A stretch of DNA of 55,507 nucleotides from a candidate division WOR-3 bacterium (GCA_965649115.1 CBFGJN010000003.1:1-55507); one strand, 5' to 3'; positions 150 to 55,366 are shown, numbered from the stretch's first letter. Numbers and translations are program-made. Notes: a model not told the origin generated them from the letters alone.

Positions 150-155
150 TAAAAT
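150..155 (+). promoter_or_regulatory. -10-like box GCTT-TAAAAT
   Basis: 6 nt before ATG 162; 22 nt from the end of MITE A. Confidence 0.7.
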
Positions 156-161
156 TTAAAA

Positions 162-505
162 ATGACTGACTTAATAAAGCTTTATGAATTATTAAAAGAA
201 AAAATAGGAGAAGAAACTGCCAAACTTCTTGTTGATGCGATATCAAAAATTTATTCTAATGGATATATAAAGAATGAGCAATTTATTGAAGTAATGAGGA
301 CGATAGAAGGTAGGATAAAATCATTTGAGGATATGGTAAAATTTGAATTTTCAAACATGAAGCACAGAAGAATTTCGCTACAAAAGATGATATCAATAGA
401 CTTGAAAAGAGAACTGAAAGAATTGAAAAAATGATTTTAGGGCTTTCAATAACTATTATTTCAAGTATCTTGTTATACTTTCTTTCAAGAATATTTCTAC
501 CATAA
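162..505 (+). pseudogene. Frameshifted small coiled-coil protein with C-terminal TM helix (DUF1640-like architecture)
   Basis: ORF 162-434 continues in the -1 frame (open from 347) as HEAQKNFATKDDINRLEKRTERIEKMILGLSITIISSILLYFLSRIFLP* (TAA 503-505); one added nt near TCAAAC (351-356) restores a 114-aa ORF. Confidence 0.65.
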
Positions 506-540
506 GAGAAGGCTCCGCTCAAAAATTTTCTGAAAATATA

Positions 541-647
541 GATTTATTGGGGGGCTATAAGGGGGACGAAGTTTTTAAGCCGAAGGCTTAATTTTAGGTT
601 GGGCGGGGAAAGATAAGAAATAATCTATATTTCAAAAATATCGACAC
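541..647 (-). mobile_element. MITE-like repeat, degenerate copy B
   Basis: AAGCC-GAA-GGCTT hairpin, AGGTTGGGCGGGG tract, decayed end ...ATATCGACAC running into the next promoter. Confidence 0.7.
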
Positions 648-650
648 CTT

Positions 651-656
651 TAAAAT
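651..656 (+). promoter_or_regulatory. -10-like box CCTT-TAAAAT
   Basis: 7 nt before TTG 664. Confidence 0.65.
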
Positions 657-663
657 TTCAATC

Positions 664-1062
664 TTGAAAAAAATTCTTATTGTTATTTTACTTATTTCTT
701 GCTTAAAAAAGGAAGGAATTGAAATTACAAATGCTTATGGAAGAATTGGAATAAAAGGAGGAACAAGTGCAGTTTTTATGAAAATTAAAAATTATGGACA
801 AATAGATACATTATATGAAGTTTATTGCGATTGTTCTGAAATAAGTGAAATTCATCAAACATTTAAAGAAGGAGATAAAATTAGCATGAAAAAAATTGAT
901 TTTATTGAAATAAGAGATAATTTTGAATTAAAACCACTTTCTTATCACATAATGTTAATAAATTTAAAGAAAGATTTAAAGGAAAACGATACAATTGATA
1001 TAAAATTAAAATTCAAGAAAAATGGAGAAAAACTAATTAAAGTCCCAATTAAAAGGCTTTAA
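664..1062 (+). CDS. Copper chaperone PCu(A)C family lipoprotein
   Basis: Lipobox LLISC; Cu-ligand pattern H-x10-M...HIM; SAVFMKIKN and ELKP..YHIML motifs. Confidence 0.85.
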   Translation: MKKILIVILLISCLKKEGIEITNAYGRIGIKGGTSAVFMKIKNYGQIDTLYEVYCDCSEISEIHQTFKEGDKISMKKIDFIEIRDNFELKPLSYHIMLINLKKDLKENDTIDIKLKFKKNGEKLIKVPIKRL

Positions 1063-1707
1063 ATTATAATTTTCAATTTTATAAATTTTTGCATTTTTAA
1101 CGTAGTTTAATAATTCAAGATTATGTGTTGCCATAATAATTGTCATACCTTGAAAGTTCAAATCAATTAAAATTTTCAAAATTTCAATAGAAGTTGATAA
1201 ATCAAGATTACCAGTAGGTTCATCCGCTATTAAAATTTCAGGTTGTCTTGCTATTGCTCTTGCAATTGCTACTCTTTGCTGTTCACCACCAGATAAATAA
1301 TGTGGATAATCATCTTTTATATTAGTTAATTTTGTAAATTTTAAAGCAAACTCTACCCTATCTTCACATAACTTTTTTGAAAGTCCCATATACCTTAACG
1401 GAAAAATAACATTTTCATAAACTGTTCTATCATTTAAAATTTTATAATCTTGAAAAATAACCCCAATTTTACGTCTTAAATCTTGAATCTCACTAATTTT
1501 CATTTTCTTATGAATTAATTTATCAAATATATAAACTTCACCACTATCAGCAAATTCGTCAAGATATAAATGTTTAAGTAATGTTGTCTTACCTATACCA
1601 CTCTCACCCACAATAAATACAAAATCACCCTTATTAACCTCAAAATTAACATTTTCAAGGACTTTCTTATTTCCATATTTTTTTGATACATTTAAAAGTT
1701 TGATCAT
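1033..1707 (-). CDS. ftsE: FtsE-like ABC ATP-binding protein
   Basis: Walker A GESGIGKTT, LRRKIGVIFQD, LSGGEQQRVAIARA, ADEPTGNLD; no ftsX adjacent. Confidence 0.75.
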   Translation of the reverse strand: MIKLLNVSKKYGNKKVLENVNFEVNKGDFVFIVGESGIGKTTLLKHLYLDEFADSGEVYIFDKLIHKKMKISEIQDLRRKIGVIFQDYKILNDRTVYENVIFPLRYMGLSKKLCEDRVEFALKFTKLTNIKDDYPHYLSGGEQQRVAIARAIARQPEILIADEPTGNLDLSTSIEILKILIDLNFQGMTIIMATHNLELLNYVKNAKIYKIENYNLKPFNWDFN

Positions 1708-2264: not shown

Positions 2265-2272
2265 AATCTAAA

Positions 2273-2292
2273 AGCCCCCAAAAATGGGGGCT
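2273..2292 (-). terminator. Intrinsic terminator-like hairpin
   Basis: Perfect 8-bp stem AGCCCCCA/TGGGGGCT, 4-nt loop, short T run on the minus strand, just after the stop at 2298. Confidence 0.7.
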
Positions 2293-2297
2293 AAAAA

Positions 2298-4019: not shown

Positions 4020-4034
4020 CCTCCTTACCTCCTT

Positions 4035-4982: not shown

Positions 4983-4994
4983 ACCCTAACCTCC

Positions 4995-7202: not shown

Positions 7203-7218
7203 AACTTAAAAACCTCCT

Positions 7219-8193: not shown

Positions 8194-8203
8194 TACTAAC
8201 CTC

Positions 8204-13724: not shown

Positions 13725-13754
13725 TTTCACAACCCCCTTTTAAACAACTTGAAA

Positions 13755-13760
13755 ATTTTA
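13755..13760 (-). promoter_or_regulatory. -10-like box CCTT-TAAAAT for the TBDR gene
   Basis: Lies just after the tonB stop; followed by a short leader with a GGGGG SD. Confidence 0.55.
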
Positions 13761-13767
13761 AAGGTTA

Positions 13768-15986: not shown

Positions 15987-15996
15987 AAGTTTCCAA

Positions 15997-16002
15997 ATTT
16001 TA
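15997..16002 (-). promoter_or_regulatory. -10-like box CCTT-TAAAAT
   Basis: 10 nt before exbB ATG; 22 nt from MITE D. Confidence 0.65.
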
Positions 16003-16024
16003 AAGGGTGTTATTTTAGGCTTAA

Positions 16025-18444: not shown

Positions 18445-18453
18445 AGTTTCAAA

Positions 18454-18459
18454 ATTTTA
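18454..18459 (-). promoter_or_regulatory. -10-like box GCTA-TAAAAT
   Basis: 9 nt before pckA ATG; 22 nt from MITE F. Confidence 0.6.
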
Positions 18460-18481
18460 TAGCATAATAAAGTGTTTTACC

Positions 18482-18620
18482 TGCTGTGTCTAGTAATTCT
18501 GAAATTATTATTGTTTCTTATTTTCTCCCACCCTACGAAATAAGCCTTCGGCTTATAACTTTGCCCCCCGTTAAACACCATATAAAAACTATTATTTCAA
18601 AAAATTCTTCACAAATCAAC
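18482..18620 (+). mobile_element. MITE-like repeat, copy F (right end decayed)
   Basis: TGCTGTGTCTAGTAATTCTGAAA, CCCACCCT, AAGCC-TTC-GGCTT, GCCCCCC. Confidence 0.8.
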
Positions 18621-18664
18621 AGTATAATTCCCTCTTTATTTCAATTAATCTTTGCTGTGTCCTT

Positions 18665-18670
18665 TAAAAT
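18665..18670 (+). promoter_or_regulatory. -10-like box CCTT-TAAAAT
   Basis: 6 nt before ATG 18677. Confidence 0.6.
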
Positions 18671-18676
18671 ATGGGT

Positions 18677-20428: not shown

Positions 20429-20940
20429 TTTTAATTCCAGATATTTTAACAACAATTAGGTTAGTTTTAGTTCCATTTGTTTTTTTGTCAATTTCAAAAA
20501 ACGAAATTCTAACAATTATTCTTTTAATAATTGCACTTATTACAGATATTCTTGACGGATTTCTATCAAGAAAACTAAAAATTCAAAATAGAGAATTTGG
20601 AAAAGCTTATGACCATCTTGTAGATAAACTATTAGTTTTTATTATTGTTTATGGGCTTGTTATTTATAAGGACTTGCCAAATTGGGCACTGTTGTTTTTC
20701 TTAATAAGAGAATTTATTTTGATAATTGGTGCAGTATTTTTATGGTTTAATAGGAAGAAAATTGAAGGCTCTAACATTCTTGGAAAAATTGCAGGTTTCT
20801 TTTTTTACTCTATGGTTATCAGTTATCTATTTAACTTTGAATTCAAATCTATATTGTTAATTCTTTCAATTATTACTTCAATTTTAGCATTTTCAATTTA
20901 TGTCTTAAGAGCTATTTATTTTTCTAACTTTCAAAGTTAA
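20425..20940 (+). CDS. CDP-alcohol phosphatidyltransferase (PgsA-like)
   Basis: IPDILTTIR, TDILDGFLSR..GKAYDHLVDK (DGxxAR..G..D..D variant). Confidence 0.9.
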   Translation: MILIPDILTTIRLVLVPFVFLSISKNEILTIILLIIALITDILDGFLSRKLKIQNREFGKAYDHLVDKLLVFIIVYGLVIYKDLPNWALLFFLIREFILIIGAVFLWFNRKKIEGSNILGKIAGFFFYSMVISYLFNFEFKSILLILSIITSILAFSIYVLRAIYFSNFQS

Positions 20941-22098
20941 ACCTTCAATTCCAATTACTTCAACCTTATCGTCCTTCAATATATTATCGTTGCTTTGTGC
21001 AAACCAAATTTCTCCAAGAACAATAACTCTACCTTCACCTTTCTGAAAATTCTCAATAGCAACACCAACTTTACCAATAATTGATTCTGAACCCGTTTGA
21101 GGCTTTTGTTTGAGTGCCTTAATAGCAAAAGCAATTATTACAAAAAAGAAAATTAATGTTAATAATAGAGCAGTCAGAATACTAAAAATTGATATTCTTA
21201 TTTGGGGATTAGAAATATCAAAAAGCATTAATGAACCAATTAAAAACGATATTGTTCCACCAATAGCCAAAAAACCACCTGTTTGTAATTTTATTTCTGC
21301 AAAAAATAAAATGAATGCTATAATAATTAACAATAAACCTACCAAATTAGCACTTAAAACTTGAAGAGCAAATAACGATAAAAGCAAAGCAATAACTCCA
21401 ATAGTTCCTGATATACCCCAACCTGGACTTGCAAGTTCAAATATAATTCCATATAAACCTATAATCAAAAGAAAATAAGCTATATTTGGGTCAGCTATTT
21501 TTTCAAGAATTTTTTCTCTCAAACTCATATCAAGCTTATCAATAACTTTGTTTTTTACACCTATACTATCAAGCAATTCATTAACATTATCAACTAAATA
21601 GTCAATAAGTCCAAATTCTTTCATTTGTGATGAAGAATAAGACTTTGCATATATTACAAAACTATCAGACCAAAATTCTGGCTTATTTCTTATCTTTAAT
21701 ATACTCTTTAAAAAAGCATTTGCATCATTCATAACCTTCTTTTGCATAACAGAATCCATTCCACCTGTTAGAGAAACAGGACTAGCAGAACCGATATTTG
21801 TACCACTTGCCATAGCGGTAATGTGAGAAGCAAGAACGATAAAAACACCAGCAGAAGCAGCCCTTGAACCACTTGGATAAACATAAGCTATTATCTTAAC
21901 TTTTGAATTCAATATTTCTTTAACAATTTCTCTCATAGCACTTTCAAGACCACCAGGAGTATTTATAATCATCAATATAAAATCGTAATTTTTTTCATTA
22001 GCTATTTTAATTGCTCTTTTAACATAACTTGAAGTAACTGGCGTTATCGGTCCATTTATTTCAATTTGAAGGATATTAGAAATTATACAAAAAAGCAT
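20905..22098 (-). CDS. nfeD: NfeD family membrane-bound serine protease
   Basis: INGPIT, INTPGG, SRAASAG, TM block, C-terminal OB fold GEGRVIVLGEIW; start moved to MLFCIISN. Confidence 0.92.
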   Translation of the reverse strand: MLFCIISNILQIEINGPITPVTSSYVKRAIKIANEKNYDFILMIINTPGGLESAMREIVKEILNSKVKIIAYVYPSGSRAASAGVFIVLASHITAMASGTNIGSASPVSLTGGMDSVMQKKVMNDANAFLKSILKIRNKPEFWSDSFVIYAKSYSSSQMKEFGLIDYLVDNVNELLDSIGVKNKVIDKLDMSLREKILEKIADPNIAYFLLIIGLYGIIFELASPGWGISGTIGVIALLLSLFALQVLSANLVGLLLIIIAFILFFAEIKLQTGGFLAIGGTISFLIGSLMLFDISNPQIRISIFSILTALLLTLIFFFVIIAFAIKALKQKPQTGSESIIGKVGVAIENFQKGEGRVIVLGEIWFAQSNDNILKDDKVEVIGIEGLTLKVRKINSS

Positions 22099-22105
22099 TA
22101 TTAAA

Positions 22106-22111
22106 ATTTTA
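22106..22111 (-). promoter_or_regulatory. -10-like box GCTT-TAAAAT
   Basis: 7 nt before ATG 22098; 21 nt from MITE G. Confidence 0.65.
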
Positions 22112-22132
22112 AAGCAAAAAGCCAAAATGACT

Positions 22133-22305: not shown

Positions 22306-22313
22306 CTCAACAT

Positions 22314-22319
22314 TAAAAT
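22314..22319 (+). promoter_or_regulatory. -10-like box TAAAAT
   Basis: 6 nt before ATG 22326. Confidence 0.6.
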
Positions 22320-22325
22320 TTTAAT

Positions 22326-23430: not shown

Positions 23431-23464
23431 CAATTGGCTTGTAAATATGGATTTTTCTTACCTT

Positions 23465-23470
23465 TAAACT
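23465..23470 (+). promoter_or_regulatory. -10-like box CCTT-TAAACT
   Basis: 7 nt before sufD ATG. Confidence 0.65.
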
Positions 23471-23477
23471 TTTCATT

Positions 23478-27670: not shown

Positions 27671-27681
27671 AATTTATTAAA

Positions 27682-27687
27682 ATTTTA
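27682..27687 (-). promoter_or_regulatory. -10-like box GCTT-TAAAAT
   Basis: 11 nt before mnmA ATG. Confidence 0.55.
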
Positions 27688-27692
27688 AAGCA

Positions 27693-27945: not shown

Positions 27946-27956
27946 ACAATGAACTT

Positions 27957-27962
27957 TAAAAT
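27957..27962 (+). promoter_or_regulatory. -10-like box ACTT-TAAAAT
   Basis: 7 nt before ATG 27970. Confidence 0.65.
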
Positions 27963-27969
27963 TTAAAAA

Positions 27970-30120
27970 ATGCTTTTAATACTAATTATTCAAATTTTCT
28001 ATGAAGATTTTGAAAATTCCTTATTTCCACCAACTGGATGGACAAATACAGGAACAAGAAGCACACTTTGGGTAAGAAGGACAAGTGGTGTAGCTTTTGG
28101 AACTGCTTCTGCTGGTGTCTCAGTTGCTCAAACTTCATCAGAAACTGGGACTGCAATCCTTCAAACACCAATTATAAACCTTCCATCAATAAACCCAAAT
28201 GATACGATAATTTTCTCATTTTATTATAAACTTCCATCTGTTGGAGGTGCTTTTGATACAAGATTTAGATCAACAGATACATTAAAAGTTCAAATATCAA
28301 ATGATGGCAATAATTGGACAAATTTAATTGTTTGGGATTCAACAAGTTTATATACAGGAGCAAATAATCAACCAAAAAAGGTTCAATTTAATATATCCTC
28401 CTATCAAAATACAAATATTTATATTAGATGGATTTTTATAGATAATACATCACTAACGGATGCTTCTAATTCATATTTCAATATAGATTCTATTTTTATC
28501 GTAATTAAGCAAGGTCTTCCACAATCTCCATATATTCCAATAGACAGCATTCAAAAAACTGTTTATCAAGGAACTGATAGTTCAATTTTTTCAGGACAAA
28601 GTATTAGAACAAGTGGAATAATTGTTGAAGTTGGTAAATATAATTCAAAGGGGTTTCATATCAAAATGAAAAATGGTGGTCCATATTCAGGAATATATAT
28701 TTATACGACGAATTTAGTAGGATTATCAAAAGGTGATTCAGTTATGGTAGAAGGAATTGTAAAAGAGTACTATAAATACACAGAAATTGTTCCCTCAAAT
28801 ATCCAAATTATTAGTCATAATAACTCATTTAAAATTGATACACTGACAACAGATTTAATAAGTTCATCAAATCCAGATAATGCAGAAAAGTACGAAGGTG
28901 TTTATATCTTCATAAAAAAGGCTATTGTGATAGATAATACAAATTCTTATAGATATGAAATTAAAAATGGAATTTTAAGTGCTTACTTGTCAAAATTTAA
29001 TGTTCCAAATTTAAATTTAAATGATATCATTTCAGTTTGGGGTGTCCTGGTTTATGAATATGGAGAATATAGAATTTATGCAGATAGCATTTACATTCAT
29101 CAATTTCCTTATAAAATTGATAAAATCATTTATGGTTATTACGATAGTCTAATTTTGAAATTCAAAAAAGTTTTTAGTCCAAATTCAAATTCCTATATTA
29201 AATTTTCTGTTTCCAATTTAATGAGGGATACAACAATTTTTGACACTGATAGTTTTAATTTTACTATTAAACTAAGTTCGCTTAACAGAGGTCTTTACAA
29301 TGCCAATATCCAAATGATTTATAATAATGATACTACAAATTTCTCATTTTTATTACCATATCCAAATGGTTTTAGTTGTTTATTGGTAAATGAATTTGAT
29401 GATTATCCAACCAAAGATGAATTTATTGAAATAAAGAACTATTGCCAATATCCAGTAAATATTGGAGGATTATATGTAAAAAGTTATTCGGGAACCAATA
29501 TCTATACAAGTTCCCCATTTGATAATATAACCTTAGAGCCAAATGGAATTTTCGTTTTCATATATGATACATTTCAAAATAATATATGTCAAAGATATAA
29601 CTTAAATAATTGTAAGGCTTTAAGTAAATGGACTTATATAAATTATCAACAGCCTATGGTTATATCAACACCAGAAGGTTTCGCAATTGACTCCATTTGG
29701 TACGATTCTTATTGGGGAGGAAGAGATCCATATACAACTATAAGGGTTAATCCAAACGAAAAAGGTTGGACGAGAAGTGCATGGGGACCCTCATCTATTC
29801 CAGGAGGAACACCAGGAAAAGATAACGATATTTACATAAGCGATGAACAAGATATTGAGGTAAATAAAAAAGATTTAGCAAAAGGAGATATTTTAAGTTT
29901 TGCTTTTAATTTAAAGGAAGAAACAAATAATGTTTATATTTATCTTTACGATGATGCAGGAAGGTACATAGATAGAATCTATTATGAAAAAAATTATATC
30001 ACAAGAAAAGGAATTGTGTTTTATAACACATCAAGGCTAAAACCAGGAATTTATATTGTTGCAATTACAGTTGATGGAAAAACAAGAAATAAAATTGTTT
30101 TTAGAATAAGACCAAAATGA
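27970..30120 (+). CDS. Secreted multidomain protein: MAM/adhesin-like N-terminus, OB folds, lamin-tail domain, T9SS-type CTD
   Basis: YEDFENSLFPPTGW; GQSIRTSGIIV and AEKYEGVYI OB-like units; LLVNEF..DEFIEIKN (LTD); IYLYDDAGR..LKPGIYIVAI. Confidence 0.7.
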   Translation: MLLILIIQIFYEDFENSLFPPTGWTNTGTRSTLWVRRTSGVAFGTASAGVSVAQTSSETGTAILQTPIINLPSINPNDTIIFSFYYKLPSVGGAFDTRFRSTDTLKVQISNDGNNWTNLIVWDSTSLYTGANNQPKKVQFNISSYQNTNIYIRWIFIDNTSLTDASNSYFNIDSIFIVIKQGLPQSPYIPIDSIQKTVYQGTDSSIFSGQSIRTSGIIVEVGKYNSKGFHIKMKNGGPYSGIYIYTTNLVGLSKGDSVMVEGIVKEYYKYTEIVPSNIQIISHNNSFKIDTLTTDLISSSNPDNAEKYEGVYIFIKKAIVIDNTNSYRYEIKNGILSAYLSKFNVPNLNLNDIISVWGVLVYEYGEYRIYADSIYIHQFPYKIDKIIYGYYDSLILKFKKVFSPNSNSYIKFSVSNLMRDTTIFDTDSFNFTIKLSSLNRGLYNANIQMIYNNDTTNFSFLLPYPNGFSCLLVNEFDDYPTKDEFIEIKNYCQYPVNIGGLYVKSYSGTNIYTSSPFDNITLEPNGIFVFIYDTFQNNICQRYNLNNCKALSKWTYINYQQPMVISTPEGFAIDSIWYDSYWGGRDPYTTIRVNPNEKGWTRSAWGPSSIPGGTPGKDNDIYISDEQDIEVNKKDLAKGDILSFAFNLKEETNNVYIYLYDDAGRYIDRIYYEKNYITRKGIVFYNTSRLKPGIYIVAITVDGKTRNKIVFRIRPK

Positions 30121-30614
30121 ATATTCTTTGGGCTCCTTGGAGATTTAAGTACGTAGCAAATGTTAATGATAAAAGTGAATGTCCATTTTGTGAAAAACCA
30201 AAAAAAGAGCCATCTCTTGAAAATTTAGTTTTATACAAATCAAAATTTTCATTTATTATACTAAACCTTTTCCCATATAACACTGGACACTTAATGGTTG
30301 CTCCTTATAAACATACATCAGAAATTTCTTCACTAACAGATGAAGAATGGTTAGATATAACTAAGCTTTTAAATTTATCAGTTGAAATTATAAAGGAAGT
30401 TTATAAACCCCAAGGATTTAACATAGGAATGAACATAGGTAGAATCGCTGGTGCAGGAATTGAAGAACATGTTCATATTCATATTGTTCCCAGATGGGCT
30501 GGTGATACAAATTTTATGCCTATTATTTCACAAACGAAAGTTATTCCAGAAAGTCTTGAAGATACATATAAAAAATTATCAGATTGTCTTAAAAAATATG
30601 AAAATCGTTTATAA
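30117..30614 (+). CDS. HIT family hydrolase (Ap4A phosphorylase-like)
   Basis: LWAPWR, CPFC, NLFPYNTGHLMV, HVHIHIVPRW. Confidence 0.92.
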   Translation: MNILWAPWRFKYVANVNDKSECPFCEKPKKEPSLENLVLYKSKFSFIILNLFPYNTGHLMVAPYKHTSEISSLTDEEWLDITKLLNLSVEIIKEVYKPQGFNIGMNIGRIAGAGIEEHVHIHIVPRWAGDTNFMPIISQTKVIPESLEDTYKKLSDCLKKYENRL

Positions 30615-30987
30615 AGCGGAAATATCTTCTGCTCACAGGATATTAAACCATAAAGGAAAGTGTAGAAATTTACATGGACATAATTACTTTATTATTGTTG
30701 AAATTGAAAGTGACGAACTTGATGAAAATGGTTTTATAATTGACTTTTTAGAAATAAAGAAAATAATTAATGAACTTGACCATAAAGTGATTTTACAAAA
30801 AAACGACCCCTTAATTGAAAAACTAAAAAGTGAAAGTTTGTTTATAATGGAGGAATCACCAAGTTGTGAAAATATAGCTAAAATTATTGCAATCAAAATA
30901 TCACAATTATTAAAAAACTACAAAAAAATTAAGGTAAGAGTTTGGGAAAGTAGAAGAAGTTATGCAGAATTTGAATTAAAAATTTAG
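30598..30987 (+). CDS. queD: 6-carboxytetrahydropterin synthase (PTPS/QueD)
   Basis: SSAHR..GKCRNLHGHNY, ELDH, PSCENIA, VWES; start moved to MKIVYK. Confidence 0.9.
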   Translation: MKIVYKAEISSAHRILNHKGKCRNLHGHNYFIIVEIESDELDENGFIIDFLEIKKIINELDHKVILQKNDPLIEKLKSESLFIMEESPSCENIAKIIAIKISQLLKNYKKIKVRVWESRRSYAEFELKI

Positions 30988-32768: not shown

Positions 32769-32780
32769 TTTTGTTATGAA

Positions 32781-32786
32781 ATTTTA
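32781..32786 (-). promoter_or_regulatory. -10-like box CCTT-TAAAAT
   Basis: 12 nt before ATG 32768; 22 nt from MITE K. Confidence 0.6.
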
Positions 32787-32808
32787 AAGGATTTAATTAA
32801 ATGAATTC

Positions 32809-37397: not shown

Positions 37398-37403
37398 TTT
37401 GAA

Positions 37404-37409
37404 ATTTTA
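37404..37409 (-). promoter_or_regulatory. -10-like box CCCT-TAAAAT
   Basis: 6 nt before ATG 37397. Confidence 0.65.
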
Positions 37410-37423
37410 AGGGATAATTTTTT

Positions 37424-39712: not shown

Positions 39713-39719
39713 AAAGAAA

Positions 39720-39725
39720 ATTTTA
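39720..39725 (-). promoter_or_regulatory. -10-like box GCTT-TAAAAT
   Basis: 7 nt before ATG 39712, in the 36-nt gap after kup. Confidence 0.65.
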
Positions 39726-39748
39726 AAGCTGAAACAAAATGGATACTT

Positions 39749-42564: not shown

Positions 42565-42575
42565 TAATTTTCAAA

Positions 42576-42581
42576 AGTTTA
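42576..42581 (-). promoter_or_regulatory. -10-like box CCTT-TAAACT
   Basis: 11 nt before manC ATG. Confidence 0.55.
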
Positions 42582-42653
42582 AAGGTTTATTGATAGAATT
42601 TTTTTCTTTTATTAGGGCTTTTTCCAATAAATAAGGCATTTTTTTCTTAACTT

Positions 42654-42659
42654 TAAAAT
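42654..42659 (+). promoter_or_regulatory. -10-like box ACTT-TAAAAT
   Basis: 7 nt before GTG 42667. Confidence 0.65.
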
Positions 42660-42666
42660 TTTCAAA

Positions 42667-44645: not shown

Positions 44646-45722
44646 TCATAAGTTATTGCAGATTGAAATTAATGTATCAACAATAATTTTACTTGGATAA
44701 AAACGTTTAAATTCTTTTTTTCTTCTAAAATTATAATAATTTTCAAAAAAATAATTTATTTTTTCATCTTTAAATTCAGAAAGAAAAGCAGTTTCATCTA
44801 AACCAACTTCTCTTTCCGTTCTTTCTCTCAATAGTAAACAAGGAACATTTAAATAATAAGTTTCTTCTTGGAGTCCTCCACCATCAGTTATTACAAAAGC
44901 ACTATCTCTAACTAAGTTCATAAAGGTTATGTAATCTAAATAACCCATAATTTCAATGTTTTGATTATTTTTTATAATATCGTAAAGTTTGAACTTTTTT
45001 AATTGAACTTCACTTGGTTTGTGAATTATGTATTTTACTTTTTTTAGTTTTGATGCTCTGATTATAATATCAATACATTTTTTGAATCTTTCTTTATTGT
45101 AAATTGTCTCTTGTCTGTGAATTGCAGATACAATATAATTAGAATTTCTTGGATCATCATCTTTTGGACGCACAAATTCGCAAAGTGTATCATAAACTGT
45201 ATTCTGAAAAGTATTAACAATAATTTTTTTCCCTTCGTACTTTTTTAAATTACTTTTAGCCCAATCAGAAGGCGGGAATAAAATATCTGAAAAATGAACA
45301 GAAATAATTCTAACTAATTCTTCTGGAAATGGATGAAATATATTAAATGACCTTAAACCTGATTCAATATGTGCAACTTTCATGTTAAATAATTTACCTA
45401 TGATTACTGCTAAAAGTGTTGATATTGTATCACCTTGAGTTATCAAAATTTTTTGATTTTTAATTTTGTTTTTATGCTTAAAAGCATTAATGATAACTTT
45501 TAAAATAAAAATTGGAATTTCATATACATTCTTTAAATCCTTTTGTTCGTTTCTTAAATTTAAATCTGGCTTTCTCAATCCAAATTTTTCTTCAAGAACT
45601 CTATTAAATGATGGTTGTTGATCAGTTTGAACATATAGATAATCTATCTTTCTCTTTTCAAGTTCTAACATTACTCCTGCCATTTTAATTAATTGTCCTT
45701 TTGTTCCAATTAAGATAACCAT
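44646..45722 (-). CDS. wecB: UDP-N-acetylglucosamine 2-epimerase family
   Basis: GTKGQLIKM (divergent), QGDT, HIESGLRS, PFPEE, HRQE, TDGGGLQEE. Confidence 0.85.
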   Translation of the reverse strand: MVILIGTKGQLIKMAGVMLELEKRKIDYLYVQTDQQPSFNRVLEEKFGLRKPDLNLRNEQKDLKNVYEIPIFILKVIINAFKHKNKIKNQKILITQGDTISTLLAVIIGKLFNMKVAHIESGLRSFNIFHPFPEELVRIISVHFSDILFPPSDWAKSNLKKYEGKKIIVNTFQNTVYDTLCEFVRPKDDDPRNSNYIVSAIHRQETIYNKERFKKCIDIIIRASKLKKVKYIIHKPSEVQLKKFKLYDIIKNNQNIEIMGYLDYITFMNLVRDSAFVITDGGGLQEETYYLNVPCLLLRERTEREVGLDETAFLSEFKDEKINYFFENYYNFRRKKEFKRFYPSKIIVDTLISICNNL

Positions 45723-45736
45723 AAAATAAATTGAAA

Positions 45737-45742
45737 ATTTTA
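45737..45742 (-). promoter_or_regulatory. -10-like box CTT-TAAAAT
   Basis: 14 nt before ATG 45722; 22 nt from MITE O. Confidence 0.55.
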
Positions 45743-45764
45743 AAGATAAATAAACCTTATAAAT

Positions 45765-45929
45765 TGCTGTGTCTAGTAATTCTGAAATATAGATTATTTC
45801 TTATTTTGCCCGCCCACCCTGAAAATAAGGCTTCGCCCCCCTATAATCCCCCATAAAATCAATAATTTCTTTAAAAATTTTATAAGTTATTGATAATCAA
45901 GGATTTAACAATAATTATTGGACAAAGCA
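45765..45929 (+). mobile_element. MITE-like element, copy O (165 bp) with perfect 9-bp TSD
   Basis: CTTATAAAT|TGCTGTGTCTAGTAAT...ATTATTGGACAAAGCA|CTTATAAAT. Confidence 0.95.
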
Positions 45930-45945
45930 CTTATAAATTTAACTT

Positions 45946-45951
45946 TAAAAT
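45946..45951 (+). promoter_or_regulatory. -10-like box ACTT-TAAAAT
   Basis: 7 nt before radA ATG 45959. Confidence 0.7.
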
Positions 45952-45958
45952 TTCAATA

Positions 45959-48529: not shown

Positions 48530-48535
48530 ATTGAA

Positions 48536-48541
48536 ATTTTA
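48536..48541 (-). promoter_or_regulatory. -10-like box ACTT-TAAAAT
   Basis: 6 nt before ATG 48529. Confidence 0.7.
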
Positions 48542-48564
48542 AAGTTTAGAGAATTATTGCAAGG

Positions 48565-48589: not shown

Positions 48590-48605
48590 CACACCATTTA
48601 AAAAT

Positions 48606-48784
48606 TGCTTTGTCTAGTAAATAATATTAAGTTGCTGATTAATTATGAATTTTACGGGGGGACTTTATGGGGGGCAGAGCCCCCCACTGCCGAAAAATGG
48701 GCATTTTAAAGCCGTAGGCTTTAATTTTGGGCGGGTGGGGAAAACATAGAAAAATAAATAGTATCAGAATTATTGGACAAAACA
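48606..48784 (-). mobile_element. MITE-like element, copy P with perfect 9-bp TSD
   Basis: TTTAAAAAT|TGCTTTGTCTAGTAA...TTATTGGACAAAACA|TTTAAAAAT; GGGGGGC-AGA-GCCCCCC; AAAGCC-GTA-GGCTTT. Confidence 0.92.
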
Positions 48785-48799
48785 TTTAAAAATCACCTT

Positions 48800-48805
48800 T
48801 AAACT
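48800..48805 (+). promoter_or_regulatory. -10-like box CCTT-TAAACT
   Basis: 5 nt before TTG 48811 (or 8 nt before TTG 48814). Confidence 0.6.
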
Positions 48806-48810
48806 TTCAA

Positions 48811-50065: not shown

Positions 50066-50084
50066 AATTGAAGCATTTAAATTT

Positions 50085-50260: not shown

Positions 50261-50270
50261 TTATGTCCTT

Positions 50271-50276
50271 TAAACT
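50271..50276 (+). promoter_or_regulatory. -10-like box CCTT-TAAACT
   Basis: 8 nt before gyrB ATG. Confidence 0.65.
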
Positions 50277-50284
50277 TTTGATAT

Positions 50285-52192
50285 ATGCAAATGTTTGATT
50301 ACACTGCTGAAAGTATAAAAAGATTAAAGGGATTAGAAGGTGTTAGAAAAAGACCCGCAATGTACATTGGTGATGTTGGTAAAAAAGGTTTTCATCATTT
50401 AGCTTTTGAAATAATAGATAATGCAATTGATGAGGTGCTTGCTGGATTTGCAAATTATGTAAAAGTAGTAATTCATAAAGATAATAGCGTCTCAGTTGAA
50501 GATAATGGAAGAGGAATACCTATTGATATTCATCCAGAAACAGGAACACCAGCAGTTGAAGTTGTATTTATGGAACTTCACGCAGGTGGTAAATTTGAAA
50601 GGAATATATATAAAATTTCGGGAGGGCTTCATGGTGTTGGAGCAAGTGTAGTTAATGCTTTATCTGAATGGACAGAAGTTTTTGTGAAAAGAAATGGAAA
50701 TTTATATAGAATGAAATTTTCAAGAGGTAAGAAAGTAGAGGATTTAAAAATTGTTTCAAAGGCAAATGGGACAGGGACTATTGTTAGATTTAAACCTGAT
50801 AAGGAGATATTTACAGATTACCCTAAACTTGAATTTGATTATGACTATATTGCTAATCGTTTAAGAGAAATTGCATTTTTAGTTCCAAATGTAAAAATTG
50901 AACTTATTGATGAAAGAACAAATAAGAGAGAGATTTTTCACTATCCAAGAGGTATAGTAGATTTTATTGATTACATTGATATTTCAAGAAAACACATTAC
51001 ACCAACATTTTGGACAAAATTTACAAATAACAGTGAAGAATTTATGGAAATTGAAATAGCACTTGCATATAATGAAGGTTATGATGAAGTCATAATTTCA
51101 TTTGTAAATACAGTTAATACTAAGGAGGGAGGAACTCATGTAACGGGATTTAAAAGTGCCTTAACCAAAGCAATTAATGATATAGGAAGAAAAATGAATT
51201 TAATAAAGAAAGAACCATTACAGGGTGAAGATGTTAGAGAAGGATTGACTGCCATAATTCATGCAAAACTTTCCAATCCTATATTTGAAGGTCAAACGAA
51301 GATAAAACTTGGAAATGATAGTGTTAGAAGTTTTGTAGAAGTAAATTTTTATGAAAAGTTTTCAAGATTTTTAGAGGAAAATCCAAAAATTGCTCAAATT
51401 ATAATAAACAAAGCATTAGAAAACCAAAAAGCAAGACTTGCTGCTAAAAAAGCAAAGGAAATTGTTAGAAGAAAGAGTTTTATTGAAAATGATAGTCTTC
51501 CAGGAAAATTAGCTGATTGTATAACGAAAGAAAGGGAAAGAGCTGAATTGTTTATCGTTGAAGGTGAGAGTGCGGGAGGTTCTGCTAAACAAGGTAGAAA
51601 TAGAGAATTTCAAGCGATATTACCATTAAAAGGTAAAATTTTAAATGTTGAAAAGAAAGGTTTAGATAAAGCATTAGATAATGAAGAATTAAAAACAATT
51701 ATTTCTGCTCTTGGTTGTGGAATAAAGGAAAATTGTAATCCAAATGAATGTAGATATGGCAAAATTATTATTATGACTGATGCGGATATAGATGGTGCCC
51801 ATATTAGAACATTATTACTCACTTTATTTTATAGATATTTTTATAATCTTATTGAAGCAGGAATGGTTTATATAGCTCAACCTCCTCTATATAGGATTCA
51901 AAAAGGCAAAATTATAAAATATGCTTATTCAGATGAAGAATTAAGTAAAATTTTAAAGGAAATAGGTTCAGAAAATGTTATGATTCAAAGGTATAAGGGT
52001 CTTGGAGAAATGAATCCTGAACAACTTTGGGAAACAACGATGAATCCAAAAACAAGAGTTTTAAAAAAAATTACTATTGAAGATGCAGCTGAGGCTGAAA
52101 GGTGGGTTTCGGTATGTATGGGTCTTGATGTATCGCCAAGAAAAGAATTTATTGAAAAATATGCTTTAAGTATTAAGGAACTTGATATATGA
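50285..52192 (+). CDS. gyrB: DNA gyrase / type II topoisomerase subunit B
   Basis: RKRPAMYIG, EIIDNAIDE, DNGRGIP, GGLHGVG, VEGESAGG, TDADIDG, YKGLGEM, C-terminal ELDI. Confidence 0.93.
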   Translation: MQMFDYTAESIKRLKGLEGVRKRPAMYIGDVGKKGFHHLAFEIIDNAIDEVLAGFANYVKVVIHKDNSVSVEDNGRGIPIDIHPETGTPAVEVVFMELHAGGKFERNIYKISGGLHGVGASVVNALSEWTEVFVKRNGNLYRMKFSRGKKVEDLKIVSKANGTGTIVRFKPDKEIFTDYPKLEFDYDYIANRLREIAFLVPNVKIELIDERTNKREIFHYPRGIVDFIDYIDISRKHITPTFWTKFTNNSEEFMEIEIALAYNEGYDEVIISFVNTVNTKEGGTHVTGFKSALTKAINDIGRKMNLIKKEPLQGEDVREGLTAIIHAKLSNPIFEGQTKIKLGNDSVRSFVEVNFYEKFSRFLEENPKIAQIIINKALENQKARLAAKKAKEIVRRKSFIENDSLPGKLADCITKERERAELFIVEGESAGGSAKQGRNREFQAILPLKGKILNVEKKGLDKALDNEELKTIISALGCGIKENCNPNECRYGKIIIMTDADIDGAHIRTLLLTLFYRYFYNLIEAGMVYIAQPPLYRIQKGKIIKYAYSDEELSKILKEIGSENVMIQRYKGLGEMNPEQLWETTMNPKTRVLKKITIEDAAEAERWVSVCMGLDVSPRKEFIEKYALSIKELDI

Positions 52193-52407
52193 ATTATAGA
52201 GAGCTAATTGAAATTATGAATGGAATTAAAGATTTATATGAAAGAATAAAAAAGTTTCATCAAACTACAAAAAGGACACTTTTTTTAGTGGAAACGAGAT
52301 TGAGATTCAAACTTTGTTCAATTTTAGTTATTTTAGTTTTAAATTTAACAATAACCTTGTTAATGCTATGGATTTTAATAAAACTTTTGGGGATAGTGAG
52401 AAGTTAA
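52189..52407 (+). CDS. Small protein: coiled-coil-like N-terminus plus C-terminal TM helix
   Basis: ATGA overlap with the gyrB stop; hydrophobic ILVILVLNLTITLLMLWILIKLLG. Confidence 0.5.
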   Translation: MNYRELIEIMNGIKDLYERIKKFHQTTKRTLFLVETRLRFKLCSILVILVLNLTITLLMLWILIKLLGIVRS

Positions 52408-53510
52408 GAATTAGATATTTTGAAATTGAAGAGTTTGAAGATGGATATAGAGTTATTGATCCTTTTGGATTTTTTGAAGATTTATTTTTTACAAAAGAAG
52501 CATTATATTTAATTAGTTTGTTTGATGGAACAAGAACAATAGACCAAGTAAAATTAGATTTTTTTAAAGCTACAAATATAATGCTTTCTGATAGTGAGAT
52601 ATTGAATTTTATAAACCAAATGGATAACTACTATTTATTTTATAATGAGAAATTTATAAACAGGTTCGAAGAAGAGAGAAAAAAAATTTTAGATTTGGAA
52701 TATAAACCCATTGAAATGATTGAAAATATAAGTCAGGTTAAAAACTTCATTAAGCAAAATCTAACTGATGACTTTGAAAATGATATAATTGCTTTAATTG
52801 TTCCACATATTGATTTAAGAATAGCTATGGATACCTATCTAAAAACTTACTCAAAAATTAAAAATTTAAAAAGAAAAATTTTTATTATATTTGGAGTTGC
52901 TCATTCTGTCCATTTAACACCATTTTCAATATTTCCTAAAAACTACTTTACTGATAGAATCGTAAAAGTTAATAACGAAATTATAGAAAAAATTAGAAAT
53001 TTGTTTGGTTATGATATTCATTTTGATGTACTAGCTTATAGAGATGAACATTCAGTTGAATTTCCAATTTTATTCATTGATAGTTTATTTGAAGAATTTT
53101 CAATAATTCCATCAATTATTGCTTATGCTAATAATAAGGAGGACTTAAAAACAATTGCTTATAGAATATACGAAGTTATTAGAAACTATAAAGATGAGAT
53201 ATTTTTAATATCAAGTATTGATTTAAGTCACGTTGGAAAAAAATTTGGTGATAGTGAATATTATAACCCAAAGGAAATTGATATGGAATATATTAAATAT
53301 ATTTTAGAATTTGAAAATGATAAGGCTTTTGAATTTTTAAAAAATTCTCAAAATCAAACGAGAATTGATGGACAATTTACAAATTATGTATTTCTTGAAA
53401 TTTTAAAATTATTAAATGTTAAAAAATCTCAAATTATTGAATATAAAAATTATTATGAGGAATTGACGGATTCAGGTGTTAGCTATTGCTCTATTAGTTT
53501 TCATATCTAA
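52368..53510 (+). CDS. AmmeMemoRadiSam system protein B (MEMO1 family) with N-terminal extension
   Basis: IVPHID, GVAH, EHSVEFPILF, SSIDLSHVG; start uncertain (ATG 52368 vs TTG 52314). Confidence 0.82.
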   Translation: MDFNKTFGDSEKLRIRYFEIEEFEDGYRVIDPFGFFEDLFFTKEALYLISLFDGTRTIDQVKLDFFKATNIMLSDSEILNFINQMDNYYLFYNEKFINRFEEERKKILDLEYKPIEMIENISQVKNFIKQNLTDDFENDIIALIVPHIDLRIAMDTYLKTYSKIKNLKRKIFIIFGVAHSVHLTPFSIFPKNYFTDRIVKVNNEIIEKIRNLFGYDIHFDVLAYRDEHSVEFPILFIDSLFEEFSIIPSIIAYANNKEDLKTIAYRIYEVIRNYKDEIFLISSIDLSHVGKKFGDSEYYNPKEIDMEYIKYILEFENDKAFEFLKNSQNQTRIDGQFTNYVFLEILKLLNVKKSQIIEYKNYYEELTDSGVSYCSISFHI

Positions 53511-54053
53511 AATCCACACTTCTCCATTCTTTTGCTTGTAATTCCAAAATAATTTCCAATCTAAATTGTTCAAAATAAAAAATATAATACCATTTGTAAG
53601 TTGATGTCCAACAATTAGGACATTTTCGTAGTTTTTACTTTCCAAATCTTCTAAAAATGCTCTTGCTCTACTAACAACTTGTAAAAATGTCTCTCCGTTT
53701 GGGGGATTATATAAGAATGGATTTTCTCTTACTTTAATGAAAAATTCTTTATTTTCATTAATAATAACAGAAGATTTCTTCCCTTCCCAATCACCCATAT
53801 TTTGCTCCCTTAAACGATTATCTAAAATAATTGAACTTTTATATTTGTTTATTTTGTTTATAATTTCAGAAGTTTGAATAGCTCTTTTTAGATCAGAAGA
53901 ATATATAACATCAAACTTTATATCTTTCAATTTTTCTCCTAATTCAATTGATTGTTTTATTCCGTTTTCATTTAATTCAAGATCAGTCCATCCTTGAATT
54001 AAATCATTTAAGTTGTAATCCGTTTGACCGTGACGAACTAAGTAAATTTTCAT
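53472..54053 (-). CDS. Histidine phosphatase (PGM-like) family
   Basis: LVRHGQT, SSDLKRA, LREQNMGDWEG, VGH. Confidence 0.92.
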   Translation of the reverse strand: MKIYLVRHGQTDYNLNDLIQGWTDLELNENGIKQSIELGEKLKDIKFDVIYSSDLKRAIQTSEIINKINKYKSSIILDNRLREQNMGDWEGKKSSVIINENKEFFIKVRENPFLYNPPNGETFLQVVSRARAFLEDLESKNYENVLIVGHQLTNGIIFFILNNLDWKLFWNYKQKNGEVWILDMKTNRAIANT

Positions 54054-55350
54054 AGTCCGAAAAGTTTAATGCTAAAATTCCATCTTTTAAATTATAAGCT
54101 TTAAATCCCATATTTCTCAATCTAATAGTTAAAGCATAGCTTTTTCTACCACTATTACAATATAAGACAATTTTATGAGTTTTCTTAAATTTAGATAAAT
54201 TTTTTAAATGTTTCTCAATTTCTTCTGATGGAATGTTAATTGAGTTTTCAATTTTAAGTTCATTCATTTCATCAGAACTTCTTACATCAATAATGATAAC
54301 ATTATTTTCTTTAAGCATTTCTTTAAGTTCATTATAATCAATTTCAATTTTTAAATCCTCTAATTTTTCTTTATATTCTTTAAGTTCTAAAACTCTCTTA
54401 CATTTTGAACATATTTCACTATTTGATGGCATTGAACAAATTGAACAAGCTTTAATATCTTCTAATTCTTCATTTAAGTTCTTTTCATATAGTGGAATAA
54501 TTTTTTTCCTAAAAATTGAAAGAAGTCTAAATTTAATATCAGGTTGTGTTTTTTCTAATTCATCAATCCAATTTTTGATTTGTTTTATTGTTGTTATTTC
54601 TCCATGAGGACAAGAACATTCTTGAACTGGAAGATCATTTAAACTAACATAATATAAGTCTTCAATTTCGGGTGTAGTTATTAAGGGTTTTATTTTTCTT
54701 GGATAACCATTTAAAAGTGGTTTTAAAACAGGTTTTAATTTTCTTATCCCTTCAAAATCACCACTTAAAAATAGGGACATCATTGTAGAAACAGTATCAT
54801 CTAAATTATGGCCTGTTGCTAATGCATTAGCATTTACTTTAACTGATAATAAAGTAAATATATTTCTTTTTATTGTTCCACAAACGGAACACATTTTGTC
54901 TTTGTACTTTGTAATCAGAAAGTCATCAATTGTATAACCTTCTTTCTCTTTAAGATTGTATATTTCTAATGGGATTTTTAAGTTTTCACAAAGTTTAATA
55001 ACTTTCTTTTCAAGATGGTCAGAATAGTACTTAATTCCGAGATTTATATAAAAAGCAAATATATCCTGTTCTTTAAAAGCCATTTTAAGCGCATGTAATA
55101 ATGCAACACTATCTTTACCTCCTGAGACTGCAACTGCAACTCTTTCATTTTTGTTGAACATTTTAAATTCTTCAACAACCCTTCTAATTCTATTTATAAA
55201 GAAATCATTAAAACAACTTTTACAAAACTTTTGTTTTGCATATCTAATTTCAATAATAGCACTATCTTTTTTACATCTTGAACATCTACCAATAGGTTCT
55301 AATTTTAATTTTATTCTACCAATTCCACATTTACCATAAAAAATTTCCAT
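54004..55350 (-). CDS. TtuA/TtcA-family tRNA thiolase fused to a C-terminal rhodanese domain
   Basis: Zn fingers CSRC..CKSC and CSIC..CSKC; PP-loop SGGKDS; CSVC; GHNLDD; rhodanese IDVR..VLYCNSGRKS. Confidence 0.85.
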   Translation of the reverse strand: MEIFYGKCGIGRIKLKLEPIGRCSRCKKDSAIIEIRYAKQKFCKSCFNDFFINRIRRVVEEFKMFNKNERVAVAVSGGKDSVALLHALKMAFKEQDIFAFYINLGIKYYSDHLEKKVIKLCENLKIPLEIYNLKEKEGYTIDDFLITKYKDKMCSVCGTIKRNIFTLLSVKVNANALATGHNLDDTVSTMMSLFLSGDFEGIRKLKPVLKPLLNGYPRKIKPLITTPEIEDLYYVSLNDLPVQECSCPHGEITTIKQIKNWIDELEKTQPDIKFRLLSIFRKKIIPLYEKNLNEELEDIKACSICSMPSNSEICSKCKRVLELKEYKEKLEDLKIEIDYNELKEMLKENNVIIIDVRSSDEMNELKIENSINIPSEEIEKHLKNLSKFKKTHKIVLYCNSGRKSYALTIRLRNMGFKAYNLKDGILALNFSDYENLLSSSRSNGLQLK

Positions 55351-55360
55351 AAGTTATAAA

Positions 55361-55366
55361 ATTTTA
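55361..55366 (-). promoter_or_regulatory. -10-like box ACTT-TAAAAT
   Basis: 10 nt before ATG 55350; 21 nt from the complete TIR at 55388. Confidence 0.6.

Follow-up and report, generated by a model that had tools for sequence, protein, structure and literature searches.

A -35-less promoter motif next to start codons and probable leaderless or near-leaderless expression of first genes in a candidate division WOR-3 bacterium

Introduction

In a 55,507-nucleotide stretch of DNA from a candidate division WOR-3 bacterium (GCA_965649115.1 CBFGJN010000003.1:1-55507; this whole stretch is called the window below), nearly every gene that could head an operon is preceded by the same AT-rich block, CTTTAAAMTTT (CTTTAAAATTT, M being A or C), placed only a few nucleotides before the start codon. 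Is this block a promoter, a translation signal or the trace of a mobile repeat, and, if it is a promoter, do the mRNAs made from it have a leader at all? A sequence-only reading of the window had proposed pervasive leaderless transcription from a -10 box flanked by CTT and TT. Here we report that the block is in all likelihood the core promoter of the single housekeeping sigma-70-type factor of this organism, and that its position gives strong support to a predicted leaderless or near-leaderless expression of most operon-first genes.

Results

The motif in the window

The window is contig C3 of a 99-contig assembly of a 1.85-Mb genome of 27.6% GC. It contains 20 exact copies of the near-invariant 11-base block, compared with 1.6 +/- 1.2 (maximum 6) expected from dinucleotide shuffles. 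The bare hexamer TAAAMT is not enriched in the window (393 occurrences vs 364 expected), and the signal therefore resides in the flanks. When one or two mismatches are allowed, 22 copies adjoin gene starts, all of them oriented with the gene, at 5-14 nt between the end of the hexamer and the start codon (mode 7 nt, then 6 nt). The constant direction noted by the sequence-only reading was thus confirmed, and the single outlier among its 22 instances is a further copy, at 13763 (-). Its statement that the motif stands before nearly every first gene is borne out as well: of the 22 operon-first genes, 19 carry the motif, and those at 30451, 47812 and 52314 lack it. The copies, taken as putative promoter motifs, are as follows.

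At gene starts on the + strand:
147..157, +: motif CTTTAAAATTT, 6 nt to ATG 162; open reading frame (ORF) of 90 aa, no family
648..658, +: motif, 7 nt to TTG 664; PCuAC copper chaperone
18662..18672, +: motif CTTTAAAATAT, 1 mismatch; ATG 18671 directly adjoins the hexamer, ATG 18677 follows at 6 nt
22311..22321, +: motif CATTAAAATTT, 1 mismatch, 6 nt to ATG 22326; glucose/sorbosone dehydrogenase
23462..23472, +: motif CTTTAAACTTT, 7 nt to ATG 23478; SufB/D
27954..27964, +: motif, 7 nt to ATG 27970; 716-aa protein with lamin-tail domain
42651..42661, +: motif, 7 nt to GTG 42667; D-amino-acid transaminase
45943..45953, +: motif within the longest radA ORF, 7 nt to ATG 45959
48797..48807, +: motif CTTTAAACTTT, 5 nt to TTG 48811; BamD/YfiO
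50268..50278, +: motif CTTTAAACTTT, 8 nt to ATG 50285; gyrB

At gene starts on the - strand:
15995..16005, -: motif, 10 nt to ATG 15986; ExbB/MotA
18452..18462, -: motif CTATAAAATTT, 1 mismatch, 9 nt to ATG 18444; phosphoenolpyruvate (PEP) carboxykinase
22104..22114, -: motif within the longest ORF, 7 nt to ATG 22098; nfeD, NfeD1b-type
27680..27690, -: motif, 11 nt to ATG 27670; MnmA
32779..32789, -: motif, 12 nt to ATG 32768; ABC exporter
37402..37412, -: motif CCTTAAAATTT, 1 mismatch, 6 nt to ATG 37397; M1 peptidase with type IX secretion system (T9SS) tail
39718..39728, -: motif between two same-strand genes 36 nt apart, 7 nt to ATG 39712; SPFH/Band 7
42574..42584, -: motif CTTTAAACTTT, divergent partner of the motif at 42651, 11 nt to ATG 42564; nucleotidyl transferase
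45735..45745, -: motif, 14 nt to ATG 45722; UDP-GlcNAc 2-epimerase
48534..48544, -: motif, 6 nt to ATG 48529; 222-aa ORF, no family
54061..54071, -: weaker copy CATTAAACTTT, 2 mismatches, 9 nt to ATG 54053; histidine phosphatase
55359..55369, -: motif, 10 nt to ATG 55350; TtuA-like PP-loop/rhodanese protein

With a real leader (the outlier mentioned above):
13753..13763, -: motif, 24-30 nt to GTG 13730 / ATG 13724, with a GGGGG Shine-Dalgarno (SD) sequence between; SusC-like TonB-dependent receptor

Exact intragenic copies:
1336..1346, -: sense within an ABC ATPase gene; chance copy or internal promoter
51948..51958, -: antisense within gyrB; chance copy or antisense promoter

Distribution, orientation and flanks in the genome

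The genome-wide analysis was based on 1,719 genes called with our own crude longest-ORF caller, and all genome-wide percentages are approximate. The genome carries 632 exact copies of the 11-mer, 412 of which lie 4-13 nt before a gene start in the direction of the gene; a further 30 precede tRNA or transfer-messenger RNA (tmRNA) genes, 73 are followed by leaders of 14-300 nt and 45 are found elsewhere in intergenic DNA. Coding DNA, 88% of the genome, holds no more than 72 copies (38 sense and 34 antisense), which may be internal or antisense promoters or may have arisen by chance. With up to one mismatch, the motif is present at 78% of divergent first genes and at 67% of same-strand first genes (those with an upstream gap of at least 40 nt), compared with 11% of internal genes. 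Two of the observations named beforehand as speaking against leaderless transcription, an equal frequency in the two orientations and a scatter over random AT-rich positions, turned out in favour of a promoter: exact copies at same-strand first genes number 144 in the sense and 2 in the antisense direction, and the motif is tied to operon-first genes, its density in non-coding DNA being about 58 times that in coding DNA.

Numbering the hexamer as -12 to -7, we recorded the flanks with TANNNT as the sole anchor, 6-11 nt before first-gene starts. Since this anchor still yields C-15 in 75%, T-14 in 78% and T-13 in 85% of cases, together with A at -10 to -8 in about 80%, T-6 in 88% and T-5 in 82%, the CTT and TT(T) flanks are real. 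The T-15 and G-14 of an extended -10 element are not what is found there: over the analyses C-15 reaches 75-86% and T-14 78-83%, while G-14 is seen in 1-3%, so that the proposed replacement of TGn by CTT stands. No positional signal of a -35 element was detected either, as had been claimed for TTGACA; the best match to this sequence, sought at spacers of 15-19 nt, does not surpass that of random TAAAMT hexamers serving as controls, and at most about 5% of the promoters could hide a -35 in an excess of 5/6 TTGACA matches. An upstream TTTG of the Bacteroidota type is likewise not apparent, TTG occurring at -35/-33 in 8.6% of cases vs 12.5% in the control. The sequence data point to a promoter that would function without a -35 hexamer. 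In a genome of 72% A+T, about 13,000 TAAAMT hexamers face only about 630 full motifs.

The motif ahead of untranslated genes

Thirty of the 46 tRNA and tmRNA genes are preceded by the motif, with 7-16 nt between the hexamer and the mature 5' end (27 nt for tmRNA). Rfam scans of the DNA downstream of orphan copies added the 23S rRNA (L092), a 16S rRNA fragment (L109), a thiamine pyrophosphate (TPP) riboswitch (L125) and a cobalamin riboswitch (L118). Both riboswitches read CTTTAAAATTTTCAAAC, their P1 stem starting 9 nt past the hexamer, and the tRNA genes carry the same spacer, TTTTCAAACT. At least six arrays of clustered regularly interspaced short palindromic repeats (CRISPR), which fall into two repeat types (Rfam DR2 and DR43), are also headed by the motif:

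C4:1-471 (L084): CRISPR array with motif
C5:27589-28059 (L088): CRISPR array with motif
C28:582-1052 (L101): CRISPR array with motif
C85:101-571 (L115): CRISPR array with motif
C43 (L129): CRISPR array with motif
C71 (L133): CRISPR array with motif

Where measured, the motif stands about 66 nt before the first repeat of these arrays.

As tRNA, tmRNA, rRNA, riboswitch and CRISPR units are not translated, the motif must be read as a promoter and not as a ribosome-binding site, an identity that is hard to doubt from such sequence context. Moreover, a tRNA has to be transcribed whole, and a hexamer ending 7-10 nt before it can therefore be neither a -35 nor a TATA-type element; it behaves as a -10 region. 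An archaeal-type leaderless promoter (the group D of GeneMarkS-2) was considered as well; the spacing of 6-11 nt and the bacterial RpoD encoded by the genome do not agree with it, and spacing and sequence rule out both an archaeal TATA box and a Bacteroidota -7 element.

Distance to the start codon

Across the genome, the distance between hexamer and start codon is 4 nt in 1 case, 5 nt in 3, 6 nt in 80, 7 nt in 150, 8 nt in 59, 9 nt in 111, 10 nt in 69 and 11 nt in 37. The floor at 6 nt is sharp, and there are two modes, at 7 and 9 nt. A lower limit of this kind is predicted if transcription starts at hexamer +7 and the A of the ATG is +1. In some divergent gene pairs the motifs stand back to back, with 0-12 nt between the 11-mers and only 32-45 nt from start to start; because these intergenic regions are filled by the two motifs, no other promoter fits in them. 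The closest pairs (0-7 nt between the 11-mers) are:

C49:7815-7836: divergent pair of motifs
C10:16160-16186: divergent pair of motifs
C17:23335-23361: divergent pair of motifs
C45:3414-3441: divergent pair of motifs
C25:15054-15082: divergent pair of motifs

The pair on C49 forms a near-palindrome, AAATTTTAAAGCTTTAAAATTT. Two RNA polymerases could hardly be accommodated at once on such closely abutting pairs, which suggests mutual exclusion.

Considering the floor at 6 nt, the tRNA 5' ends as little as 7-10 nt and the P1 stems 9 nt from the hexamer, and the tight divergent gaps, we infer leaders of at most about 0-5 nt.

Translation starts

The start codons next to the motif agree with protein families. 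Aligned with their profiles (protein residue/profile position), PEP carboxykinase begins at 2/4, MnmA at 4/2, histidine phosphatase (His_Phos) at 3/1, nucleotidyl transferase at 6/3 and D-amino-acid transaminase at 5/4; as the proteins match the first profile positions from their first residues, the motif-adjacent ATGs are the true starts. SD 4-mers occur at 1-4% of motif-proximal genes, in keeping with the earlier claim of no SD at these genes, and at 32-44% of internal genes (a share obtained with noisy start calls), with GGAG/GAGG peaking at -12/-11. There are accordingly two modes of translation start, without SD at motif-proximal first genes and with GGAGG sites at internal genes. Start-codon usage separates no class (ATG in 73-91% of the motif classes vs 87% at SD-led starts).

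The longest-ORF start lies upstream of the promoter in 14% of the motif-proximal genes (76 of 531), including radA and nfeD. The sequence-only reading had preferred shorter starts for three genes of the window. For radA this is supported, since the new Met is residue 24 of the long ORF, whose residue 22 is matched by position 5 of the TIGR00416 profile; the product from ATG 45959 begins MFICSNCGY. For nfeD (20905-22098) the NfeD1b type was confirmed, and the motif-based start is compatible with the data without being proven by them. The choice of ATG 18677 over ATG 18671 would follow from the promoter model only.

A further indication comes from the tRNA genes, 27 of which (of 46) have an ORF of 60 codons or more beginning within 8 nt downstream, for example:

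C2:17293-17367: tRNA-Asn, directly followed by an ORF
C79:3082-3156: tRNA-Arg, directly followed by an ORF

Processing of the tRNA 3' end would release near-leaderless mRNAs from such units, and these are evidently translated in this cell. In the sister genus (G005) a new promoter box is often found between the tRNA and the downstream gene instead.

The primary sigma factor

The genome encodes three proteins of the sigma-70 family, a primary RpoD of 541 aa (L081:589-2214, contig C12) and two of the size of extracytoplasmic function (ECF) factors (152 and 175 aa). RpoD matches that of E. coli with E = 1e-88 over regions 1.2 and 2-4, and regions 2-4 are intact. It keeps the TG-reading residues H455 and E458 (E. 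coli numbering) and the -35-reading segment RERVRQIE, and differs in region 2.4 by R436K, A438S, T440M, S442A and Q446H. In a comparison of 30 relatives (loci L161-L190), M or I at position 440 is confined to the genus of the window (5/5), and the 25 others have T or S; Q446H is common to the order and is present in f1 as well as f2, its two families. A classic altered-specificity mutant of E. coli for position -12 is T440I. The sequence-only reading had raised possible changes in sigma regions 2.4/3.0 that could read CTT, and this is confirmed only in part: a genus-specific T440M/I is present, while H455 and E458 are unchanged. T-14 and T-13 are found in 83% and 93% of promoters in the window's genus, with M/I at 440, vs 52% and 53% in the sister genus; the link between residue 440 and a rigid CTT is a correlation over two lineages and nothing more. 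A stand-alone CarD was not found in the genome, the CarD domain occurring only in an Mfd-sized protein.

The layout in related genomes

The exact 11-mer is present in about 380-630 copies per genome in the window's genus and in about 110 in the sister genus; the other families of the order and class show no enrichment. The layout was compared in relatives by searching for a TA[ATG][AT]AT box within 4-15 nt of the start codon:

G005, sister genus, 51% GC: box at 31% (43/140) of first genes vs 19% (15/81) of internal genes
G009, same order, other family, 41% GC: box at 69% (65/94) of first genes vs 31% (41/134) of internal genes
G020, same class, other family, 39% GC: box at 45% (33/74) of first genes vs 13% (19/147) of internal genes
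G007, same order, 57% GC: smaller sample and a 6-11 nt window, box at 45% (22/49) vs 31% (17/54), difference not significant

In three of these four relatives the box is thus commoner at first than at internal genes, and weakly so in G007. The promoter-adjacent layout is older than the exact motif. The flanks differ: G005 has C-(T/A)-(T/G)-TAAAAT-TT, G009 has C-18 (83%), C or G at -15, T-13 and a C-rich discriminator, and G020 shares only T-13. C-15 holds in the window's family, the sister family having a different form with C-18 and C-15. A class-wide C-15, hinted at by a small G020 sample, disappeared in a sample of 240 kb (24% C). T-13 and the leaderless layout look like the sole class-wide features. 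Within the window's family GC content ranges from 27.6% in the window's genome to 51% in the 282-kb sample of G005, and the promoter core TAAAATTT is common to both.

RNase P and other features of the genome

The RNase P RNA, sought as a yardstick for start sites, is absent from the window's genome, and its protein partner RnpA was likewise not found there. The comparison with relatives gave the following pattern:

RNase P RNA (RF00010): window's family (two genera) 0/7, other families of the class 33/34
RnpA (PF00825): window's family 0/7, other families of the class 32/34
HARP-family PIN_5 (PF08745): window's family 7/7, other families of the class 10/34; 2 of the 17 total matches lie below the curated cut-off

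The HARP (homologue of Aquifex RNase P) gene of the window's genome (G000:C2:47359-47883, - strand) aligns end to end with solved structures named 'RNA-free ribonuclease P' (E = 1e-33). According to a 2024 review, only in Aquificaceae has HARP taken the place of the RNA enzyme, and elsewhere the two occur together (PMC10941002). Taking into account this limit and the HARP-only state seen here, the window's family looks, from its gene content, like a second independent replacement of RNase P by HARP in Bacteria. A HARP-only RNase P would fit the short pre-tRNA leaders (about 1-9 nt) predicted by the promoter geometry.

The window also encodes a SusC-like TonB-dependent receptor with a CarboxypepD_reg domain and the M1 peptidase with a T9SS sorting tail; this content points to an affiliation with the Fibrobacteres-Chlorobi-Bacteroidetes (FCB) superphylum. 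The best matches of GyrB, none of them to a close named relative, are only 50-57% identical and are spread across many phyla. The 16S rRNA is represented by its first 376 nt at a contig end (C40:17567-18037), found by the Rfam scan and missed by a first-look search of the genome. The same search gave no match for the signal recognition particle RNA; as its filter missed the 16S fragment in this AT-rich genome, such negatives call for caution. At 30117-30987 (+), two ORFs in different frames (30117-30614 and 30451-30987) overlap by 164 nt; the PTPS domain of the second starts only at residue 52, and no promoter motif lies ahead of it. The overlap may reflect a mis-called start, a frameshift or a programmed overlap.

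Discussion

Our results are best explained if V-CTT-TAAAAT-TTT (V being A, C or G) is the core promoter of a single housekeeping sigma-70-type factor that gives rise to leaderless or near-leaderless mRNAs of first genes, an explanation in which we place high confidence. TAAAAT would be the -10 hexamer (-12 to -7), CTT would occupy -15 to -13, the place of the extended -10 TGn elsewhere, TTT would begin the discriminator (-6 to -4), and no -35 element would be used. Transcription would start about 7 nt past the hexamer, usually at an A. With the start codon 6-11 nt past the hexamer in most first genes, the 5' end of the mRNA would be the A of the ATG itself or would be separated from it by a leader of no more than about 5 nt, without SD. 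Such mRNAs would need the leaderless translation route that begins at a 5'-terminal AUG, and genes inside operons would use ordinary GGAGG sites. The reading of the window as one of pervasive leaderless transcription is therefore supported as regards motif position and geometry, and only the class with 6-7 nt needs no leader, while those with 8-11 nt may have leaders of 1-5 nt.

Some points weigh against this explanation or limit it. Leader length is derived from geometry alone, and a fixed start at +7 would leave more than half of the motif-proximal genes with leaders of 1-5 nt, not strictly leaderless. The conserved H455 and E458 and the intact region 4.2 explain neither the preference for CTT nor the missing -35. 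The 3' end of the 16S rRNA, with the anti-SD, lies outside the assembly, and the approximate nature of the percentages follows from the crude longest-ORF gene calls.

The most serious variant is that of a fixed start about 7 nt past the hexamer, in which truly leaderless mRNAs come only from genes at 6-7 nt (about 43% of the motif-proximal ones) and the 8-11 nt genes form an SD-less 'mini-leader' class with 1-5 nt, e.g. 5'-ACU-AUG. The bimodal spacing (7 and 9 nt) agrees with it, as does the conserved TTT(C/A)AAACT before the ATG of the 9-nt class, with A at hexamer +5 to +7; the block TTTTCAAAC also precedes tRNAs and riboswitch P1 stems, which suggests a start inside CAAAC followed by 2-3 transcribed nucleotides. 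Discriminator sequence can, on the other hand, shift the choice of start, which could track the first purine of the feature; the mRNAs of the 9-nt class would then be exactly leaderless. We regard this variant as a real possibility, if a somewhat less than even one; it refines the promoter explanation and does not contradict it. A reading of the flanks CTT and TTT by an accessory DNA-binding factor or an alternative sigma, in place of the primary sigma, is unlikely. In its favour, the sequence of the primary sigma, with the TG-reading residues and region 4.2 retained, would not lead one to expect CTT, and the block, at about 15 positions, is exceptionally rich in information for a sigma-70 -10 region. 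Yet the only other sigma-70-family genes are the two of ECF size, a stand-alone CarD was not found, and a motif that serves rRNA, tRNA and most operons has the role of the housekeeping holoenzyme.

Two further explanations are both very improbable. The motif could be a non-SD translation signal or leader element within a longer 5' untranslated region (UTR), with promoters further upstream; FCB bacteria are mostly of the non-SD 'group B' in the GeneMarkS-2 survey (PMC6028130), the window has FCB-type genes (T9SS tail, SusC-like receptor), and the motif is AT-rich like known translation enhancers. Such a signal is difficult to reconcile with motifs before untranslated tRNA, rRNA, riboswitch and CRISPR units, with tRNA 5' ends only 7-10 nt downstream, with divergent gaps of 32-45 nt that contain just two motifs, or with the lack of conservation upstream of the motif; internal genes rarely have it (11%) and use GGAGG. 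The group B pattern, in which first and internal genes have the motif alike, is not that seen here (67-78% vs 11%, in addition to the use at RNA genes). Alternatively, the copies could be ends or cargo of an abundant repeat of about 200 bp, similar to a miniature inverted-repeat transposable element (MITE), spread by transposition and unselected as promoters. Its terminal sequence ATTGGACAMAGCA does lie at a fixed offset of 21-22 nt upstream of about 21% of copies, with a second group at 13-15 nt, and a repeat end abuts the motif at 18650-18662 of the window. Against transposition as the source, no repeat end is found near about 75% of copies, the DNA between repeat end and motif is unconserved, the spacing of the motif to start codons and tRNA genes is maintained, and the box recurs at the same position in GC-rich relatives. 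The repeat appears to insert beside promoters rather than to carry them. In the window it (end GAATTATTGGACAMAGCA) is found, e.g., at 104-128, 18470-18661, 45700-45790 and 48750-48790.

The housekeeping promoter proposed here resembles several known systems. In group C of GeneMarkS-2 a Pribnow box lies about 6-10 nt before first-gene starts and SD sites are found at other genes; leaderless operons are estimated at 25-50%, mainly in Actinobacteria and Deinococcus-Thermus (PMC6028130). The WOR-3 genome shares with this group a Pribnow-type box 6-8 nt (up to about 10) before the operon-first start, the missing SD there and the SD at internal genes, and shows several of its hallmarks: 67-78% of first genes with the motif, the SD split, and use of the promoter also for untranslated genes. 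It differs by its FCB-affiliated lineage, by an estimated operon share of about 67-78% instead of 25-50%, and by a near-invariant block of 11-15 nt in place of a loose TAnnnT. In Deinococcus deserti, differential RNA sequencing (dRNA-seq) revealed 60% of mRNAs to be leaderless or near-leaderless; a -10 box immediately precedes the start codon, and a -35 is not conserved (PMC4007540). The two organisms have in common that a -35 is not widely conserved and that leadered mRNAs carry an SD (here the gene at 13730, with GGGGG). The D. deserti starts come from dRNA-seq and proteomics, whereas ours are inferred, and its box is a degenerate TATAAT-like one in a GC-rich genome, compared with CTT-TAAAAT-TTT at 27.6% GC.

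Extended -10 promoters with TGn are -35-independent and derive specificity from the 3 bp upstream of the hexamer. Independence of a -35, added specificity from these 3 bp and the conserved H455/E458 are found here too, but -15 to -13 read C-T-T and not T-G-n. Promoters of the Bacteroidota sigma-AB reportedly (Bayley et al. in 2000, and later work) consist of -33 TTTG and -7 TAnnTTTG, and Bacteroidota mRNAs normally have leaders. The FCB superphylum, an AT-rich element close to the start and the lack of a canonical -35 are common ground; the element is TAAAATTT(T/C) and not TAnnTTTG, and RpoD has its full length of 541 aa. The design is thus the same as in published leaderless bacteria, and what is unusual is the lineage, the predicted share of about 70%, the length and near-invariance of the block, and C-T-T for T-G-n. 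A full-text literature search found no paper linking leaderless genes and WOR-3.

A bolder and rather doubtful proposal is that expression in the window's family is almost UTR-free: a -35-less cassette of about 15-18 bp (V-CTT-TAAAAT-TTT, often with CAAACT) and an RpoD with T440M/I would make +1 coincide exactly with the first base of ORFs, tRNAs and riboswitches, having co-evolved with the fusions of tRNAs to start codons and with the replacement of RNase P by HARP. If this were true, the family would have the highest leaderless share known in Bacteria, together with a new, C-15-based extended -10 recognition.

The data extend promoter-adjacent, probably leaderless expression to an FCB-affiliated lineage, at a predicted share of about 70% of operons, which is at or above the 60% of D. 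deserti. Gene callers trained on SD sites misplace starts in this lineage, and the motif provides a rule for starts, operon boundaries, CRISPR leaders and RNA genes. It is also a natural case of promoter specificity at 72% A+T, where a rare C-15 and fixed flanks make the difference. If the start sites confirm it, the mini-leader class of 1-5 nt would be a good system for determining the minimum length of a leader.

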